Assembly (NCBI GenBank): GCA_951406725.2 | Contig: OX597836.1 | Location: 25,668,001-25,732,000 of the forward strand | From: Octopus vulgaris | Lineage: Eukaryota | Direction: 5' to 3' | DNA: 64,000 bases | Program-made: the position numbers and the translations under genes | Shown here: one piece after another, positions 8,186 through 64,000 of the stretch | How positions within the stretch are numbered: position 1 is the first letter of the stretch | Layout: every line of letters starts with the position of its first letter | Notes under the pieces: model-generated | The model's input: the letters and a program-made list of their open reading frames with translations, nothing else | What the model was told of the DNA's origin: nothing | Database searches by the model: none

Positions 8186-9302
8186 TATGCAGTGGATTAT
8201 GAGATTACAACAGAATAAAAGCATCTCATACAATCGTGCGTGTTTGTTTCTTTGCTTACTTGTGTGCGAAAATCCGTGTGCATGTATATATATGTATGCA
8301 TGTGTGTGTGAGTGTGTGTGAGATTTGTGTGTGTGTTTCCGTGTATGTGTTAGTGTGTACATGTATGTTTTTTGCAATCAGGAAACCGTAATGTGCACAC
8401 ACACACACACACACATGCACAAACACATGCACAAACACATGCACGCATATATATATATATTTATATACACAGACTCAAAACTCACATACTGAAGTACATG
8501 TGCATAAACCTACGCACACATGCGAAAAGCCATACTGTACATTCAATGCCCATAAAAACCTTGTGCATACAAAATCTCTTTGATAAGCTTAAGAGCTTTA
8601 ATGACATTTGAATCCGTTCTTCCAATTTTTTTACAGCTTGTTTAGAAAAGAAATTATTGACGATTCCAACTGCACAATGACTTTAAGGACACTCAAAATC
8701 TACACTCACACATATACACATATATACATACATATACACATATACATATATACATGCATGCATACATATATACTACATACTATATATATACATATATATA
8801 TATATTTAGGTATGAATATTTATATATATATAGATATATAAATGTATGTGTTTGTGGATGCGTATATATGTTTGTATGCATATATCTATGTATGTCTGTC
8901 TATATGTACGTATAGAGGTGTGTATATATGTATGTATTTGCTTAAATATCGTAATAAACGGTTTACACATACATGTATCGACAATACACTTGTGGGCATC
9001 GAAATCAAATTCTGTTCATTTTGATTCAACCTGGTCCTCTGTGTTTGTAATATAGAAAGAAAGAAAAAAAAATGAAAAATAAAAACAACGTCAAGAAGAG
9101 ATTGAAAGAAAGGGGGCAGGGTAGAGAAAAAGGGGAACAGAATGAGGGGGAGCGAGAAAGGGAGTGTGCGTATGTGAGGGAGCGAAAGAGAGTGAGAGAT
9201 GACACTGGATTATACATACATATATACATACATATATGGTGTTATATATATATATATATATAATTATAAGTATATATATATAATTTTATATATATATATA
9301 AT

Positions 9303-11691: not shown

Positions 11692-12026
11692 CATTATTGG
11701 TGAATTGAAGAAATGGAGCTGAACGCAGATTGAACAGAAATCGTTTTATTTCATTCTACACGTGTTTCGAAAGGCACAAATTACCAGTAACAGTTTCGCC
11801 ATGGGCTCTTAGGAGCATAGTTCGATTTGTTTTTGCTCCGCCTCTGTTCTGTTTTTGTTTTTCCAACGGATTTCCTATTTTCTTCCTGAAGAGAAAGACA
11901 CAATATGGTCCCATTATTCCATCGGATTTTGGTAATTTGTGCCTTTCGAAACACGTGTAGAATGAAATAAAACGATTTCTGTTCAATCTGCGTTCAGCTC
12001 CATTTCTTCAATTCACCAATAATGTT
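11690..12026. repeat. Perfect 97-bp inverted repeat with a 143-bp spacer
   Basis: 11690-11786 is the exact reverse complement of 11930-12026. This also explains the twin MNRNRFISFYTCFERHKLP ORFs. Confidence 0.95.
11876..11969 (+). ncRNA. Type I hammerhead ribozyme motif inside a perfect inverted repeat
   Basis: UAUUUUCUUC CUGAAGA G-AAAGACACAA...UUGUGCCUUU-C GAAA CACGUG UA GAAUGAAAUA, with a GUA triplet. Confidence 0.7.
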
Positions 12027-14560: not shown

Positions 14561-14655
14561 CCTTGATTTTCCTGATGAGAAATCTGCATAATGTACTCCT
14601 TATTCCTTCGGAATTAGGAATATGCAGCCTTCGAAACATATGTCGAGAATAAAGG
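14561..14655 (+). ncRNA. Type I hammerhead ribozyme, Penelope-type with long stem II
   Basis: CCUUGAUUUUC CUGAUGA G-AAAUCUGCAUA...UAUGCAGCCUU-C GAAA CAUAUG UC GAGAAUAAAGG. Stem I pairs at 10 of 11 positions, and the GUC triplet is at 14642-14644. Confidence 0.75.
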
Positions 14656-14889: not shown

Positions 14890-15599
14890 CATAACAAATA
14901 TAGATCACACACACATATTACAGAGAGGTGTATAAAGGAGGGAAATTTGGAGTACGTTCATGGAAAGAGAAAATGGTATATATATTTAAATCCAACGTGG
15001 TTACACATCGCTGGTCACAATGCTCTTTTGCGTTGTTTTAGCCTTCAAATGACGTCATCCCGCTGGCTAGGCAAGCACGCCAACGATCCCCCTTGATCGA
15101 AGGGTGACTGGAGAAACGTGAAATGAAGTTTTTGGCTTAAGAACACGACACGCCACCCAGTCGAGGAATCGAACCCACAATCTAAAGACCGTGAGTGCAA
15201 CAGCTTAACCAATAGGCTACATGCGTGTATGTTTATGGTTCTTACATAGGAAAAGTTCTTAAGAATAGAAAACTGCTTAGTTGATTTTACACAAGGATCA
15301 ACCTCACAGGAATGGTAGCTTCAAATCAGAAATCCCACGCGAGTTTTCAGTGAAAACTTTAGAATTTTGTTTCAAAGCAGTAATGGTTTGATAAAAAGTA
15401 CGAAACTGTTAGCACCTTGTATGCATGGAGCTAAGTATATTTTGTGTGGTACCATTCTCCTTTAAGTTCCACCTGGTGTGAGAAACGGAAACCTGGGGTT
15501 CGAAACAGTTTTCAAAAATTGCTTTCATGATATTATTTAAATTTACAAAAGCGGCAGGAACTTAGTTGCCAACCCAATATATTATTTATATTATTATTA

Positions 15600-16890: not shown

Positions 16891-17486
16891 TATATGTATG
16901 CGTGCGCGTGTTTATGTATGTATGTATGGAAAGCTTTTATTTTCTTATATTATTCATTAGACTGCGGCCATGCTGGGGCACCGCCTTCAAATATTTTTAG
17001 TCGAATGAATTGAGCCCAGCGCTTATTGTTCTTTGAAACTTGCGATTATATTATCGGTTTCTGTTGCCGAACCGCTCAGTTACGGCGAACTTAAGCATAC
17101 TCATAGCAGTGGTCAAGCGGTGGTGGGTATAAACACAGACACAAAGACACACACGCACACACAAACAACACACACACATATGTTAGAGGCTTCATTCACT
17201 TTCCATCTGGCCAGCCCGTGGCTATAGTAGAATTGTAACGAATCATGAAAGATGTCTTAAAGATTTTCTTTGTTTTCTTATTGCTTTTATGTATGTATGT
17301 ATGTATGTATGTATGTATGTATGTATGTATTCTCTCTCTGTTTATTTTCTCTTATTCTTTTCTGCTGAAGAGCGTAGGCTCGAAACGTGAACAACTTTCT
17401 CATTTTCCCGAGCGTCAAACTAATAAACCTGTTTGTTGTTCATACACCTGTCTTCGTTTTCTGTTGTTCTGTAACTTTCAACTATA

Positions 17487-30566: not shown

Positions 30567-30670
30567 ATTATTTTTACAATCCACATCAACCTTCTCAATA
30601 AGCAACCTTCTGGCCTTCGCTAGGTTATTCTGTCGAGCGGCCTCGTGTAGTTTCTTTTCACCTTTCAACA
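30567..30670 (-). CDS. ANKDD1A: Internal coding exon (104 nt) of an ankyrin repeat and death domain-containing protein 1-like gene
   Basis: Minus strand reads ctcattctatttgcag|TG TTG AAA GGT GAA...AAA AAT AAT|gtaagt, with a canonical acceptor and a consensus donor (phase 1 in, phase 0 out). The peptide (x)[34 protein letters not shown] resembles the first ankyrin repeat of vertebrate ANKDD1A ([24 protein letters not shown]..., recalled, not searched). 1A versus 1B orthology cannot be resolved from one exon. Confidence 0.75.
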
Positions 30671-33191: not shown

Positions 33192-33259
<68 letters not shown>

Positions 33260-33294
33260 TAAAGAATGGAGTCGAACGACGATTTAACAAAATT

Positions 33295-33389
33295 CCTTTA
33301 TTCTCGACATATGTTTCGAAGACTGCATACTCTTAATTCCGAAGGAATAAAGGGTGCATTATGCCGCCTTCTCATCAGGAAAGACAAGG
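33295..33389 (-). ncRNA. Type I hammerhead ribozyme, paralog of 14561-14655
   Basis: Minus strand: CCUUGUCUUUC CUGAUGA G-AAGGCGGCAUA...UAUGCAGUCUU-C GAAA CAUAUG UC GAGAAUAAAGG. Confidence 0.75.
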
Positions 33390-33440
33390 AACTTATGTCA
33401 GCATCATGACGAATAAAAACTTTTAGAAGACTGCCCACTT

Positions 33441-33511
<71 letters not shown>

Positions 33512-33512
<1 letters not shown>

Positions 33513-33673
33513 TTCATTAAAAAGCAGTAAAATATCACAAAAACTGTTACTCAGAGTTTCACGTTCCCGTTCGTCTGAGAGTTTATTTAGAATCTAAACA
33601 AACCTGTCCGACGAACGGGAACATGAAACTCTGAGTATCAGTTTTGTGATATTTTTCCTGCTTTCTAATGAAG
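33512..33673. repeat. Palindromic ~160-bp element
   Basis: CTTCATTA...AACTGTTACTCAGAGTTTCACGTTCCCGTTCGTC pairs with GACGAACGGGAACATGAAACTCTGAGTATCAGTT...TAATGAAG. Confidence 0.9.
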
Positions 33674-33757
33674 CATATTACTCTAACTCTGGTATTCGAG
33701 TACTATTTTCCCACCTTCTTTCGCATTTATATGCTTACTGTTGTATCTTCCCCCCAA

Positions 33758-38264: not shown

Positions 38265-39135
38265 CCAGAGCGTCGGACAAAATGTATTGCGGTATGAGTG
38301 TTCCGGTTCTTTTCTTTCTGATTTCAAATCTCGCCGAGGTCGAATTTACCTTTCATCTTTTCGGAGTCGATAAAACACTTGCAAGTGAGTATGATTTTAG
38401 GAACATGTGCGATGCTTTCACGAAATGCTTCAGGTGCTTGTATAACCGTCAAACCGTTATAGTCTCCTGTCAACAATTTTACCCGTGACCCACCGGATCA
38501 TGATATTACATATATTGTTGAAGAATCTAACAGTGAAGAAAAGAGAAACTAGAAGATAAAATCTTGACGCTCTGGATAAAACATTTATAATTGTGTGCAC
38601 GGTCATTCCCACTAAGCAATTGTTCTACCATCACTGGGAGCGGAGAAAAGTTAAATAAATCATGAATTTATTTCGTATAGTATTTAATATATTCTTTTTA
38701 GTATTTATTGTTCAAATACTTGCCTTTGACCACTTTGAGTTATATCCCTTGGCTCATTTTTCGTATCATTTACACAAATTACTAACGCTAAAACGTGTTC
38801 AGTTTCGTATATGTGTAAGTGTTTCGTATATGTGCTGCAGATAAGGTAAGAAAATGCTGTGCTGATAACATTGATGCGGAAACATGTCGATAATTGTCCG
38901 CTTGAGTTAATGAGATAATCTTTCCGAAACGGTATATTAATTCTGGAGAATTAACTCCTCGTTTTATCTGGAGTTAGTCTCAACTGCCACCAAGCGATTG
39001 CTGAATCTAGAAAGAAATTTGAATCAGCAGTAACTTTTCTTGTAGAGTATTTCATTTCCTCTTGTTCGTCTTTGTTCTTTCATGCTGCCACTGGCCGACA
39101 ATCCGAGTTCTTTCTTTTAGCCCGTTATATATATA

Positions 39136-39684
39136 TTGGGTTGTCCGGAAAGTTCGTGCCGATTTTTAAAGGAAAGAAAAAGATCAATAAATACTTGCCA
39201 TTACATATTTAATCAACCAAATATGAACCATTTTGTTGCACAATGCATCTCCATCTTTCCTTTAACTTGAAAATATCCTTCCCCCAGAATTGAGGTGGTT
39301 TCATGGCAAAGAATTCATCAAGGTATCTTTTTACGTCATCTAAGGAATTGAATTTTTTTACCATTAAGACTATTCTGCAGAGACTTGAATATGTGTAATC
39401 CGAAGGAACAATATCTGGGGTAACACATCGCAGCCGAGCTGCAGCAATTTTTGTCTGGTTCCCAAAACATCAAGTGCCGAAAATGAATTTTCTTAACTTC
39501 CATTTTAAAGGGTTACAGAATTAACACAAGATATAGGAACATACACCTTCTTACACGAAAAGATAGCTTAAACTGTTCTCTAAATGGAGGTGTAGTCAAT
39601 CCTATTTTATGCACTCAACCACGTTCTAAAATAAGTCGAAAGGTAAGCTCCTATAAATCGGCACGAACTTTCCGGACAACCCAA
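39136..39684 (-). mobile_element. Internally deleted mariner (DD34D-type) element
   Basis: Perfect 30-bp TIRs (TTGGGTTGTCCGGAAAGTTCGTGCCGATTT) flanked by TA. The minus strand has MEVKKIHFRHLMFWE fused to TRQKLLQLGCDVL, then PDIVPSDY...FNSLDDVKRYLDEFFAMKPPQFWGKDIFKLKERWRCIVQQNGSYLVD*, a mariner C-terminus. Confidence 0.9.
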
Positions 39685-39910
39685 TATATATTGGATCGTT
39701 AGCTCCTACATGCAATTTTTTTCTCTCCTTGTTTCTTTTCGGTGTATCTTTCTGTCGAAGAGCGTAGGCTCGAAACGTAAAAGACTTGTTTTATTTCTAT
39801 TCCTGAGCGCCATACTAATACATTGTTTGTTTGTACTCCACCTGCCTTCGTCTTTTGTTTATTTTCGTAAACCTGCCTTCGTCTTTTGTTTATTTTCGTA
39901 AACCTTCCCG

Positions 39911-39955
<45 letters not shown>

Positions 39956-40104
39956 CGGGATCAGCCATCTGAATGTGGCTAGGGACAGGGCGGGGTGGTG
40001 GGGGTGTTACTGATGCATTTAGCCCCAGGCGACTAAAGACGTCACCAGAAGAGCCGACACCATCACGGTGTCCTTGCTAGCCTGCAAAGGGAGATCAGCC
40101 TCCC

Positions 40105-40181
40105 CGAAGATACGGATGCTACACACGGACCGGTTTCGAGGTAGTCGCCTCTCGTCAGCGCATGGCAAGCACCGTTCTTCG
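40105..40181 (-). ncRNA. Type I hammerhead ribozyme with a canonical core
   Basis: Minus strand: CGAAGA-ACGG-UGCU-ugc-CAUGCG CUGACGA GAGG(cgacua)CCUC GAAA CCGG UC CGUGUG-u-AGCA-u-CCGU-a-UCUUCG. All core nucleotides are present, with a GUC cleavage triplet, a palindromic stem III and a long stem I with an internal loop. Confidence 0.85.
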
Positions 40182-40189
40182 TTGAGGGA

Positions 40190-40230
<41 letters not shown>

Positions 40231-40590
40231 CTGAGTGAACTGGAGTAACTTGAAATAAAGTGTTTTGCTCAAGAACACACAACATAGCCCGGTCCGGGAA
40301 TCCAACTCACTACCTTAAGATTGTGAGCTATACGCTCTAAACACTGAGCCACGCGCCTTTACACGCGCGCGCGCGCACACACACACACACATAATTATTT
40401 AACTAGAATAGCTTTGACAGTAACTGCGAAGTTCCGACGATTCCTTAGCTGACTGAAACATCGAAGTTACTGTCAATAATATTATTATTTCAGAGTTAAA
40501 AAAAAAAATGTTACTCTACAAAATTATAGAGTAATCCCCAGATTAACGTAAAATCGTTTTTTTTAATTATAACTGAACATAAAAAAAACA

Positions 40591-46628: not shown

Positions 46629-47981
46629 TCTTTTATGAATGATATGGATTGCCTAAGGAAAGGGGAAAATGTGTATTGAGAGGGCATATAAACTGAAGAG
46701 GCAGCTCAAACTGAGCGGAGTTGATCTCGAATTCTTTTATGAATGATATGGATTGCCTAAGGAAAGGGGAAAATGTGTATTGAGAGGGTATATAAACTGA
46801 AGAGGCAGCTCAAACTGAGCGGAGTTGATCTCGAATTCTTTTATGAATGATATGGATTGCCTAAGGAAAGGGGAAAATGTGTATTGAGAGGGCATATAAA
46901 CTGAAGAGGCAGCTCAAACTGAGCGGAGTTGATCTCGAATTCTTTTATGAATGATATGGATTGCCTAAGGAAAGGGGAAAATGTGTATTGAGAGGGCATA
47001 TAAACTGAAGAGCTGCTCAAACTGAGCGGAGTTGATCTCGAATTCTTTTATGAATGATATGGATTGCCTAAGGAAAGGGGAAAATGTGTATTGAGAGGGC
47101 ATATAAACTGAAGAGGCAGCTCAAACTGAGCGGAGTTGATCTCGAATTCTTTTATGAATGATATGGATTGCCTAAGGAAAGGGGAAAATGTGTATTGAGA
47201 GGGCATATAAACTGAAGAGGCAGCTCAAACTGAGCGGAGTTGATCTCGAATTCTTTTATGAATGATATGGATTGCCTAAGGAAAGGGGAAAATGTGTATT
47301 GAGAGGGCATATAAACTGAAGAAGCTGCTCAAACTGAGCGGAGTTGATCTCGAATTCTTTTATGAATGATATGGATTGCCTAAGGAAAGGGGAAAATGTG
47401 TATTGAGAGGGCATATAAACTGAAGAGGCAGCTCAAACTGAGCGGAGTTGATCTCGAATTCTTTTATGAATGATATGGATTGCCTAAGGAAAGGGGAAAA
47501 TGTGTATTGAGAGGGCATATAAACTGAAGAGGCAGCTCAAACTGAGCGGAGTTGATCTCGAATTCTTTTATGAATGATATGGATTGCCTAAGGAAAGGGG
47601 AAAATGTGTATTGAGAGGGCATATAAACTGAAGAGGCAGCTCAAACTGAACGGAGTTGATCTCGAATTCTTTTATGAATGATATGGATTGCCTAAGGGAA
47701 GGGAAAATGTGTATTGAGAGGGCATATAAACTGAAGAGGCAGCTCAAACTGAGCGGAGTTGATCTCGAATTCTTTTATGAATGATATGGATTGCCTAAGG
47801 AAAGGGGAAAATGTGTATTGAGAGGGCATATAAACTGAAGAGGCAGCTCAAACTGAGCGGAGTTGATCTCGAATTCTTTTATGAATGATATGGATTGTCT
47901 AAGAAAAGGGGAAAATGTGTATTGAGAGGGCATATAAACTGAAGAAGCTGCTCAAACTGAGCGGAGTTGATCTCGAATTCT
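46629..47981. repeat. Tandem array of 13 copies of a 104-bp unit
   Basis: Units start at 46629, 46733, 46837, 46941, 47044, 47148, 47252, 47356, 47460, 47564, 47668, 47771 and 47875. They are near-identical, with one GAATTC per junction. Confidence 0.98.
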
Positions 47982-48303: not shown

Positions 48304-48552
48304 GTGGAGGCACGTGGTTTAGCGGTTAGGGTGATGAATTCATGATCGTAAGGTTGTGGTTTCGATTCCTGGATCGGGCGATGCGTTGTGTTCTTGATCA
48401 AAACACTTCATTTCACGTTGCTCCAGTCCACTCAGCTGGCAAAAATGAGTAATCCTGCGACGGACTGGTTTTCCATCCAGGTGGGGATTTCTACGCCACT
48501 GATACCGGGAAACCAGCCCTTATGAGCCTGGCATGAGGCGAGACGGAACATT
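48304..48552 (+). mobile_element. SINE family C variant
   Basis: tRNA-like head and the same 3' end as 56112-56414 (CCGGGAAAC..GCCCTTATGAGCC.GGCATG), with a different middle. Confidence 0.75.
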
Positions 48553-56414: not shown

Positions 56415-57345
56415 GCGTATAAGTGACAGAAATCACAACATTGCCTCTGAACTGAGCAAGAGTCCGGCCCAGGTTTGCTCATTTACAATTGAGCAGATTG
56501 TAGTAACGTAAAATAAAGTGTTTTGTTCAAAAAACACAACGTACCGCCCGGTTCGGGAATCGTAACCACGTACTTGCAGTTCTGAGTACAACAGACTTAC
56601 CACAAGACAACACGAATTCACCCAGAAGAAAAAAGTACCCAATATATAAACTAGATTGTCAAATATTTACATTTCTTAAATAAAACTCTCTTACAGAACT
56701 GTTAATGTTTCCCTTTTCTAAAGAATTCACACTTATTCTTCTCTTCGAGGAGACAGTAATATTCCTTTAAGTACCATTCATCTCATAAAAGCAAATATTG
56801 TGTGGAGATATTTATTTTATGGACAAGAAGTAATGAAAAAATTAAAGTCGTTCCTTTAAAATAAATTGAACCGAGAGCGCAAAGGGACATAACTCATTGC
56901 TGCAAAAAAACATTTCGTTTGGTGCGCAACTGTTTTAGTCACGCTTTATAACACTTTTCTTTCCTTTTTTTTTACTTTTGTGTTTTTTTTATTTCTTTTT
57001 CTTTTTTTATATTCGACTGAGAATTTGTTATTTACTCGCCGAAACGAATCGAAAGACACAATCTTTGGTAATATGACGCTTTGTTTTTTTATTTTTACTT
57101 TTCTTTTACGTCATTCATTGAACGGACTGCGGCCATGATGGAGCACTGTCTTGACGGGTTTTGTCGAAGATTTTCGATTCTCAAATCGAAGGTGCTTTGA
57201 GTTTTTGAACCAAATACTTCACTTCACGTTGTTCCAGTCTGCTCGGCTGTAAATGGGTACACCCTGCAATGGACTAGGGCTCCGTTCGCGGAGGAGGGGG
57301 CGTGGCCCTGCCCCATCTATCCAGCAAGGTGGTAACATTCGAAAG

Positions 57346-62330: not shown

Positions 62331-63545
62331 ATGCCACCTGTAGAAATGAGTTGCGACGTCACTGGTGCCAAGATGTATCGACCTTTGTCTTTCCCTTGGA
62401 TAACACTGGTGGCGTGGAGAGGGGAGGCTGGTATGCATGGGCGACTGCTGGTCTTCCATAAACAACCTTGCCCGGACTTGTGTCTAGGAGGGTAACTTTC
62501 TAGGTGCAATCCCATGGTCATTCATGACCGAAGGGGGTCTTTACCTTTACTCCGTGACCAATTTGTCAGCAGATTATTAAGCTTCGAAAGAAGGATAATT
62601 CAAGTATTGGGTCTATTGCAAAGATTGTTAACAAGTCAAAAAGTGTTGTTCTCGGTATTCTTAAGGTCTACGATGATTGTGGTTCGTGTGAAGCAAGAAA
62701 GTCTACAGGTAGGCCAAGAAAATGACCAAGAGAGAAGATCGTGCTATGGTAAAGTTGGTTAAAAAGGACAGGTTTAAAACTGCTGCTGCTGTTTCTCGGG
62801 AAATGAGCATTGTACAGAAGAAAACTTTATCTCGAAAAACTGTGTCTCGTCGTTTAGTTGAACATGACCTACAAGCAAGAGCACCTGCAGTGAAGCCACT
62901 GATCAGCTCCAAGAATAAAAAGTGTCGTCTTACCTTTGCAACCGAACATGTGTTGTGGTCTCAAGAAAAATGGCAAACAGTGCATTTCAGTGATGAATCT
63001 AAGTTTAAGTTATTTGACTCAGATGGGAAAAGGTACGTTCGTCGAAAAGTAGGTGAAAAATTGTCGCCTAAATGCCTTAAGACTAGTATTAAATTCGGTG
63101 GAGGAAGTGTCATGGTTTGGGGGATGATATATGGAGATGGTGTGGGCCCTTTGGTGCGATTACATGGAAAGGTAAATGCAGGAGTTTATAAACAACTTGT
63201 AAAAGATCATGTCTTGCCTGTGCTGAGAAATTCAACTAAGCGACCACCCATATTCATGCAGGACAATGCCCCATGTCACAAGGCTAAGGTTGTCATGAAC
63301 TTCCTCAAGGCTGTAAAGGTTATTGTTATGCTCAAAGCCCAGATCTCAATCCTATTGAAAATGTGTGGAATATTCTAGGAGAACATTCGAAAGCCAGAAA
63401 TCCTAAAACAACCGAGCAATTATGGAATGCCGTTCAGGAAGAATGGAATAAGATCACCCAGCAAGAAATTGAAATTTTAATTTCCTCATACAGTCGAAGA
63501 TGTCAAAGTGTGATCGAAGCTAAAGGGCTTCACACTAAATATTCA
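62331..63545 (+). pseudogene. Tc1 DD34E transposase pseudogene
   Basis: Paired-like N-terminus (QQIIKLRKK...SIAKIVNKSKS...GRPRK) with a 1-nt frameshift near 62720. The ORF at 62722-63378 carries FSDES, GGGSVMVWG and MQDNAPCH. An apparent ~10-nt deletion removes WP before QSPDLNPIE, and restoring it gives D-34-E spacing. The C-terminus is IEAKGLHTKY. A ~210-bp insertion follows the putative ATG at 62331. Confidence 0.9.
62338..62550 (+). mobile_element. 5'-truncated SINE or retroposon 3' fragment nested in the Tc1 transposase
   Basis: This GC-richer block interrupts the transposase. It starts CTGTAGAAATGAGT (compare CAGCTGGCAAAAATGAGT in the SINE at ~48433) and ends in a short TTTACCTTTAC repeat tail. 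No TSD is visible. Confidence 0.6.
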
Positions 63546-64000
63546 ATAATTCCAGTATTCTCTGTCATTTTTGATTATTTTGTTATTTTTTCAACCGTTC
63601 TGATCATTTTCACCGCCATGGGTTTTGCAGTAAATCACTAAATAATCTCTACTTTTTGTATTATCCTCTCAAATTACACCAAAATCTCAGACAACAACAA
63701 CTAATATCGTATTTATTGTCTGTGAAAATTATAGAATATAAAACAACTTTGATAAAAACTTATACCTACTTTTCTGACGAAAACAATGCCGTTCTGAACA
63801 TTTTAGCCGCAACTGTATATATATATACATATATGTTCATGTATGTAGAGTTATATGTATGTTGGTGTGCGTATGTACGTGTGTACGAGGGAAGAGGTAA
63901 ATTCACATGAAGCAGCGTTGAAGAAATAACATTCACTCGAGAATATGGCCATATTAAACATGCTTCAATACACTCAGGAGTGGGAAGATTTTCTCATGTG

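Follow-up and report, generated by a model that had tools for sequence, protein, structure and literature searches.

The insert and its surroundings

In the 64-kb stretch of octopus DNA analysed here (the window), a GC-rich insert of 238 bases lies at positions 39954-40191 on the minus strand, enclosed by two runs of (TA)n. The left run, (TA)21 at 39912-39953, adjoins the 3′ end of the element, and the right run, (TA)19 at 40192-40229, adjoins its 5′ (truncation) end; both are 100% pure in a repeat scan and are regarded as the target microsatellite. The GC content is 0.582 in the insert versus 0.364 across the window. This is the GC-richest 239-nt stretch of the window, with no other 239-nt window equal to it in GC. 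These observations agree with the original prediction of a compact GC-rich island between pure (TA)n. The ratio of observed to expected CpG is 0.80 in the unit versus 0.84 in the window, and CpG content is here a poor guide to the age of the insert. All six reading frames of this 239-nt copy contain stops, with no long ORF within the 239 nt, and the unit contains no tRNA, A box, B box or T4 run. No second copy of the unit was found elsewhere in the 64-kb window. A reading of the insert as a MITE was rejected, as terminal inverted repeats reach only 3-4 nt past the TA runs. We also note an unexplained internal direct repeat of 14 nt, 86% alike, at 39953-39966 and 40087-40100, 134 nt apart.

The host gene was identified by a protein search, in which 1 of 50 candidates passed, the Octopus bimaculoides ankyrin-repeat and death-domain protein 1A. 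Two minus-strand exons, at 30567-30670 and at ~8973-9038, translate identically to residues 32-65 and 66-87 of this protein (P0001), which bears out the cephalopod host that was originally proposed. The exon at 30567-30670 has both acceptor and donor, and the one at ~8973-9038 is a 66-nt in-frame exon near the start of the ankyrin region in this ANKDD1A-like gene. Residues 1-31 of the protein were not found in the 64-kb window. The unit lies upstream (by ~9.3 kb) of the exon at 30567-30670 on the same strand, and on the predicted gene model the insert is therefore probably located in a long intron of the ANKDD1A-like gene, the one preceding this exon, with its hammerhead in sense orientation.

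The insertion site is an accumulation of mobile-element debris. Next to the right TA run is the 5′ part of a tRNA-like element (40231-40358, minus strand), presumably a SINE, which ends abruptly at the TA run; other copies lie at 48308-48435, 56499-56561 and 15107-15195, and on the far side of the unit its 3′ part was looked for and not found. The tRNA-like head lies on the hammerhead strand, upstream of the hammerhead, and points into the unit, and by eye its B box seems mutated. With this orientation, and with no T4 run in the unit, it is conceivable that Pol III reads through into the copy. On the other side lies an AT-rich tail (39721-39911, plus strand) whose minimal hammerhead, with its core near 39752, is degenerate. 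The left TA run is where this tail ends, in a tail-to-tail arrangement with the unit. A second copy of the tail lies at 17330-17465, with 75% identity over 141 columns, and we infer the label Penelope-type for it from PMC4209133. Also in the window are a mariner-like element at 39129-39691, which has 40-nt terminal inverted repeats (97.5% alike), is flanked by TA and has a related end at 15542-15582; a frameshifted Tc1-type transposase remnant at 62713-63641 on the plus strand (HTH_Tnp_Tc3_2, DDE_3); and a 13-copy tandem array with a 104-bp unit and 98% matches at 46629-47981.

A relaxed scan of the window gives eight hammerhead-like motifs on both strands, some of which are surely due to chance. 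The AT-rich motifs at 11886 (plus), 14572 (plus), 33378 (minus), 31642 (minus) and 22141 (minus) have an architecture unlike that of the unit. In those at 14572, 33378 and 11886, the helix II region is very long (54-55 nt) and helix III has a palindromic insert of 6 nt, and they are also outside the short minimal form of Penelope-like elements (PLEs). The hammerhead copy at 33257-33444 has TA on both sides, is 188 nt long with 37% GC, and retains 49 nt after the cut. Beside the 33378 hammerhead is an inverted-repeat element (33512-33690) with, by eye, a degenerate hammerhead-like core in each arm, an arrangement like that of inverted PLE ends. Several short hammerhead-like motifs of minimal type, most of them altered in the CUGANGA core, are found at 39752 (plus), ~17362 (plus), 22141 (minus), 31642 (minus) and ~40440 (plus), and are probably the tails of further Penelope-type families. 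When the unit was aligned with six neighbouring or hammerhead-bearing stretches, all 12 local alignments fell within the range of shuffled sequences, consistent with the earlier proposal that it is distinct from the AT-rich hammerhead tails.

Hammerhead geometry

The minus strand of the insert carries a canonical metazoan type I hammerhead geometry. The domain forms one long hairpin at 40099-40187, in which helix I and its extensions surround the core. According to the pair list, the 5′ strand of helix I (40159-40181) consists of six paired bases at 40159-40164, the 3-nt side of an internal loop at 40165-40167, and an extension to 40181; its 3′ strand and extension occupy 40105-40127. The 6 bp next to the core are formed between 40159-40164 and 40127-40122, followed by a 3x1 internal loop and then by 4, 4 and 6 bp, giving 20 bp in total, with 4 bp further out. 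The core C3-A9 reads CUGACGA at 40158-40152. Helix II has 4 bp (40151-40148 with 40141-40138) and is closed by a 6-nt loop 2 at 40147-40142, so that helix and loop span 40138-40151. In the adjoining segment 40128-40137, GAAA at 40137-40134 is followed by the palindrome ACCGGU, which folds into a 2-bp helix III (A40134-U40129 and C40133-G40130) with a 2-nt loop, and by the cleavage triplet GUC, whose C17 is 40128. The predicted cut is 3′ of C40128.

The CUGANGA, GAAA and UH elements and three helices, with helix I open, satisfy the type I pattern. The internal loop and the 6-nt loop 2, the putative sites of tertiary contact, are both in place, and the letters at the ends of loop 2 have no listed variant. 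Loop 2 opens with C and closes with UA, which we take to resemble the S. mansoni motif. The helix lengths of 6, 4 and 2 bp (I, II and III) fit the canonical metazoan form as defined in PMC4209133, namely 6 bp in helix I, 4 bp in helix II, and 1-2 bp in helix III with a palindromic loop of 2-4 nt.

A strict hammerhead descriptor has one match in the real window, which is this motif. The same descriptor matches none of 150 simulated windows (order-2 Markov, 64 kb each) and none of 20,000 order-1 resamples of the unit, and a chance motif is therefore excluded. Rfam has no match to the unit at the gathering threshold, and no hammerhead family is present among 49 and 3 weak matches, which are microsatellite-driven or weak. 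The search with hammerhead models that was suggested with the original prediction thus came out negative for Rfam, whereas the custom strict descriptor does match.

Predicted folding

None of 300 shuffles equals the 95-nt hammerhead domain in stability (z -3.7), and 11 of 300 shuffles are as stable as the remaining 144 nt. For the RNA left after cleavage, 107 of 300 shuffles are as stable, i.e., it is no better than shuffled sequence. The whole minus strand has a z of -2.55, with 2 of 200 shuffles as good, and the whole plus strand has a z of 0.56, with 142 of 200 as good. The stability of the minus strand is carried by the hammerhead hairpin.

The minimum-energy fold of this copy is inactive, at -41.7 kcal/mol versus -36.0 kcal/mol for the fold with an open core, a gap of ~5.7 kcal/mol. 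In the inactive fold, the core pairs with bases of helix III and helix I slips by two. The earlier description of a textbook type I hammerhead is accurate for the core, the helices and GUC, but Rfam does not recognise the motif and the best predicted fold buries its core. An intermolecular helix III, formed as a self-duplex, is worth -8.3 kcal/mol and makes up for the greater part of this difference. For two molecules, an additive estimate that leaves tertiary contacts aside gives -80.3 kcal/mol for the paired dimer versus -83.4 kcal/mol for the inactive state, so the dimer is still ~3 kcal/mol short. These modelled energies fit a dimer requirement for cleavage without demonstrating it. In the 3′ half, five listed family variants fall at positions that are predicted to be paired, and four of them disrupt the pair. 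A viroid-like rod for this half was therefore rejected, and a rod-like monomer is unsupported.

A many-copy family in public sequencing runs

The unit belongs to a family of many copies, which is divided into subfamilies. All or part of its sequence is contained in 20 of 24 listed sequencing runs, which come from 10 studies and carry five organism labels. None of the runs that contain it is listed as RNA, and X7 is a putative RNA run. Four of these 24 runs were taken for contig analysis, with placement at 80% likeness and variants counted at a 3% share away from contig ends, and 696, 474, 202 and 52 contigs fit the unit. Depth reaches 2180 for single contigs; summed contig depth does not represent a copy number. 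Contig details were obtained for 32 of 1430 records and 24 of 85 loose-end rows, and among the contig records listed none covers the whole unit.

Fifteen substitutions are listed, and all eight in the ribozyme domain (40105-40181) are compatible with the fold. In loop 2, three inner positions vary (40143, 40144 and 40146) and there is a 1-nt deletion at 40146; the first C and the last A have no listed variant. Helix I variants keep their pairs, from G.U to A-U at 40161 and from G-C to G.U at 40118. The core varies at 40153, 40154 and 40158. One of these positions is the variable N7, and the other two turn C3-G8 into U3-A8, both forms being present in the family. The depth shares of U3 and A8 in the four runs are 21/14, 47/36, 60/58 and 53/65%, and they co-vary across runs (r 0.92, n=4). 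U3 and A8 occur in cis in one contig each of runs X1, X2 and X7, in each case with a loose end at 40152. No CpG is involved in the C3 change, and eight of the ten CpGs in the domain have no listed variant. U3-A8 is described as a natural and active covariation of the hammerhead core (PMC3088659). Among the listed variants, no helix pair has changes on both sides.

Since 74 of the 231 possible substitutions in the domain would be compatible with the fold, a 6/6 fit (leaving out the 3-8 pair) would have a probability of roughly 0.001-0.007, which is optimistic because the contig statistics rest on related copies and a placement filter. The hammerhead is real and, judging by these sequence variants, under selection within a high-copy octopus repeat family. 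A family with structure-keeping variation was indeed what the original prediction had anticipated. The exact hammerhead core pattern has no match in metagenome, viral or prokaryote genome contigs. The exact pattern of the conserved module described below has no match in viral or metagenome contigs, and its one match in genome contigs, 22 nt in a bacterial MAG with unlike surroundings, was dismissed as chance.

Element ends and a conserved 3′ module

Among the 32 contig records listed, four run 35-43 letters past 40192, at depths of 2180, 288, 62 and 47. Given this depth and the word size of 31 letters, we take the letters past 40192 as shared sequence and not as a TA run. At the other end, loose ends in all four runs have a common short end motif just past 39957-39963. 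In the subfamily that resembles the window copy, the end motif adjoins variable AT-rich letters (agreement 0.68-0.74, in seven contigs of X1 and seven of X2). In another subfamily, shared letters continue beyond the motif, with an agreement of 0.84-0.93 in X2 and X7. The window itself contains two near matches to the end motif versus 7.7 expected.

The most conserved and most deeply covered part of the family, as judged by contig variants and depth, is a module near its 3′ end (39963-40032, minus strand). Only one substitution and one 1-nt deletion are listed in it, and its summed depth is far above that of the hammerhead part. The module contains a short hairpin at 39963-39980. At 40032, the loose ends indicate that the sequence of other subfamilies continues in a related but diverged form, and divergence thus explains at least part of the fall in depth there. 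As a side observation, a C-rich run in the module corresponds to a G-quadruplex-type motif on the plus strand at 39982-40004, and the plus strand would be the first-strand cDNA.

As contigs extend past both ends of the copy, beyond 40192 and, with shared letters, beyond 39954, the ~240 bp originally given is not the unit length. Of the proposed "monomer or fragment", the fragment is supported, since contigs are longer than this copy, and the whole monomer is not. None of the four runs revealed a head-to-tail joint; their contigs are short, and the family is longer than the stretch compared. The missing joints argue against a tandem period of 239 bp. Target-primed insertion would be expected to leave such traces, namely TA flanks, a 3′ end that is fixed and a 5′ end that is truncated.

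Comparison with known hammerhead elements

Non-LTR retrozymes are described as tandem repeats of 150-450 bp with one hammerhead per unit, giving both linear and circular RNAs, and most canonical type I hammerheads of animals are located in retrozymes (PMC7229834). Unit lengths in the same source are 220-245 nt in coral, 350-390 nt in Mytilus and 330-350 nt in axolotl. The octopus element resembles metazoan non-LTR retrozymes in its canonical type I hammerhead with a short palindromic helix III, its non-coding sequence, its size of a few hundred nucleotides, its many copies, its co-occurrence with PLE-type elements, and the fact that solo copies are known. Solo copies are common in retrozyme families, which are related to the pseudo-LTRs (pLTRs) of PLEs (10.64898/2026.07.22.740005). 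It differs from retrozymes in a GC content of 58%, compared with the <45-50% described for animals (PMC7229834, PMC7761336), in a 3′ half with no supported rod, in the common U3-A8 subfamily, and in being a solo copy with no tandem joint in four runs. Moreover, the accessible text of PMC7761336 describes metazoan retrozyme repeats as having no motif that indicates a partner, whereas the octopus family has a conserved and fixed 3′ module, which may be a motif pointing to the mobilising partner.

The pLTR hammerheads of PLEs described in PMC4209133 share with the octopus unit the type I topology, a palindromic helix III, U3-A8 (in Schistosoma PLEs) and the occurrence mostly as single truncated copies. 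The minimal PLE form in that paper has a helix II of 7-8 bp, a helix I of 4-5 bp, a loop 1 that is ill-defined, and AU-rich flanks. In contrast, the octopus hammerhead is canonical and GC-rich, and there is no ORF in the copy. Schistosoma SM-alpha and Sj-alpha (PMC8490949) are likewise short non-coding repeats with a canonical type I hammerhead, but the octopus copy has no tRNA-derived head or Pol III boxes. In another cephalopod, the giant squid, 235 Rfam hammerhead_1 loci are counted (PMC6962438), in the accessible text without characterisation of an element; these are also type I hammerheads, but the octopus motif is missed by every Rfam model. Comparisons with Helenus/Ajax (PMC10886601) and with HDV-like circRNA hammerheads (PMC7936874) were set aside as irrelevant, as far as the accessible texts go.

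A proposed origin of the insert

We lean towards the reading that the insert is a solo, 5′-truncated copy of a high-copy, non-coding hammerhead retroelement family of octopus, moved as follows. A source copy would be transcribed by read-through, as no A or B box was found in the unit. The hammerhead would cut after GUC, probably best when two copies are paired through the palindromic helix III, as its geometry and energies suggest. A Penelope-like reverse transcriptase/endonuclease may then recognise the conserved 3′ module and nick (TA)n, and the RNA would be copied from its fixed 3′ end. An early stop of copying would leave dispersed, 5′-truncated copies between TA runs, and the TA flanks, the common 3′ end and the longer 5′ end of the family are all seen in support of this step. 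The element is thus probably non-autonomous and carried into (TA)n by Penelope-like enzymes.

The copy keeps 64 nt 5′ of the cut site, including the core. Because the core stays with the 5′ product when a type I hammerhead cuts, the template RNA should have been uncut, multimeric or circular, as would be expected if the master copies are tandem retrozymes. Retention of the core is the main argument for tandem or circular source copies. By analogy, the element may work like an animal non-LTR retrozyme, with tandem arrays and RNA circles as candidate traits. The original assignment to a retrozyme family therefore holds in part: the canonical hammerhead, the many copies, the non-coding sequence and the co-occurrence with PLEs agree with it, and the lack of a joint in all four runs and the GC content of 58% do not.

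The co-occurrence consists of the putative PLE-type hammerhead tails in the window and of Naiad PLEs reported in Octopus species. (TA)n is the preferred target of Naiads, which are present in Octopus, and a microsatellite bias is reported for other EN+ PLEs; the Naiads themselves are described as having no hammerheads in the accessible text of that source (10.1101/2021.04.23.441226). When the unit was aligned with the PLE-type tails of the window, no sequence link to any PLE was found. Dispersed monomers are normal in retrozyme families, and eight of nine predicted Xenopus retrozyme dimers failed to cleave (10.64898/2026.07.22.740005).

The missing head-to-tail joints in four runs would also suit an element that is never in tandem, such as Schistosoma SM-alpha, which is termed a SINE-like retrotransposon in PMC8490949. 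Its RNA would be linear, with the hammerhead near the 5′ end and a fixed 3′ tail common to a larger family or to an autonomous partner; the ribozyme would serve to trim the transcript or turn it over, perhaps in trans with two RNAs involved, and a circle would be unneeded. We regard this as unlikely, although it accounts well for the fixed end motif beside variable AT-rich letters in the window-like subfamily and for a 39963-40032 module that terminates in a small hairpin and is both far more deeply covered and more constant than the hammerhead part. The depth argument is weakened by the fact that summed contig depth is no copy number, and other subfamilies continue past the end motif at an agreement of 0.84-0.93, possibly entering the next repeat unit. 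The unit also has no tRNA, A box or B box. Moreover, a linear cut RNA could not transmit the ribozyme, because type I cleavage strips the core from the 3′ product.

It is slightly less probable that the insert is the 3′ pLTR end of an autonomous PLE that is unusually GC-rich and has a canonical hammerhead, the copy being an ordinary 5′-truncated PLE insertion. The TA on both sides, the tail-to-tail position next to a Penelope-type tail, and the family contigs that run 35-43 letters beyond 40192 at depths up to 2180 would all be in place, and PMC4209133 reports U3-A8 in Schistosoma PLE hammerheads and canonical hammerheads in plant PLEs. Metazoan PLE hammerheads in the same paper are minimal with AU-rich flanks, whereas the unit is canonical with 58% GC. 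Within the window, 49 nt follow the cut in the AT-rich hammerhead element between TA flanks, whose GC is 37%; in the unit, the values are 174 nt and 58%. The unit has no ORF remnant and no similarity to the PLE-type tails of the window. No RT or GIY-YIG ORF was found 5′ of it within the window, but family letters exist beyond 40192, and an ORF-bearing Penelope parent is conceivable. Since retrozymes and pLTRs are related in Xenopus (10.64898/2026.07.22.740005), the pLTR and retrozyme readings grade into each other. Finally, the sense orientation upstream of an ANKDD1A-like exon, together with the conserved intronic hammerheads known in amniotes (PMC6155905), could suggest a single domesticated ribozyme acting on the ANKDD1A-like pre-mRNA. 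This reading, like that of a chance motif, is highly improbable given a many-copy family with subfamilies and an insertion in a TA tract amid mobile debris. The control matches (0/150 and 0/20,000) speak against chance, and the window has hammerhead-like motifs on both of its strands.

Implications

In the open-access literature that was searched, neither a cephalopod retrozyme nor this sequence was found to be described; Repbase, Dfam and the supplement of PMC7229834 may contain it. Given that hammerhead repeats are known in many animal phyla, including a bivalve, and that hammerhead hits have been tallied in the giant squid, an octopus family was to be expected and is no surprise. By analogy, it would be an element of a kind already known from mussels, corals and salamanders. 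Rfam misses this family, and families of this sort are therefore undercounted. The two natural core forms, C3-G8 and U3-A8, allow a side-by-side comparison of cleavage.

A bolder reading, which we consider speculative and improbable, is that the family is a GC-rich, non-tandem, SINE-like passenger of PLEs. Its ~70-nt 3′ module would serve recognition and priming for a TA-targeting enzyme, and its hammerhead, in the two compensated core forms C3-G8 and U3-A8, would cleave as a trans-dimer when separate transcripts pair through the helix III palindrome. If this is true, many sense intronic copies would be conditional cut sites in octopus pre-mRNAs. A-to-I editing is heavy in cephalopods, and, as a speculation, it could then alter the long hairpins bearing these cut sites. 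The 3′ module would in that case be a sequence handle on the autonomous element that moves animal hammerhead repeats. More generally, on the question of which enzyme moves animal retrozymes, the fixed, conserved 3′ end and (TA)n target of the octopus family can be matched to the ends of octopus PLEs and LINEs.
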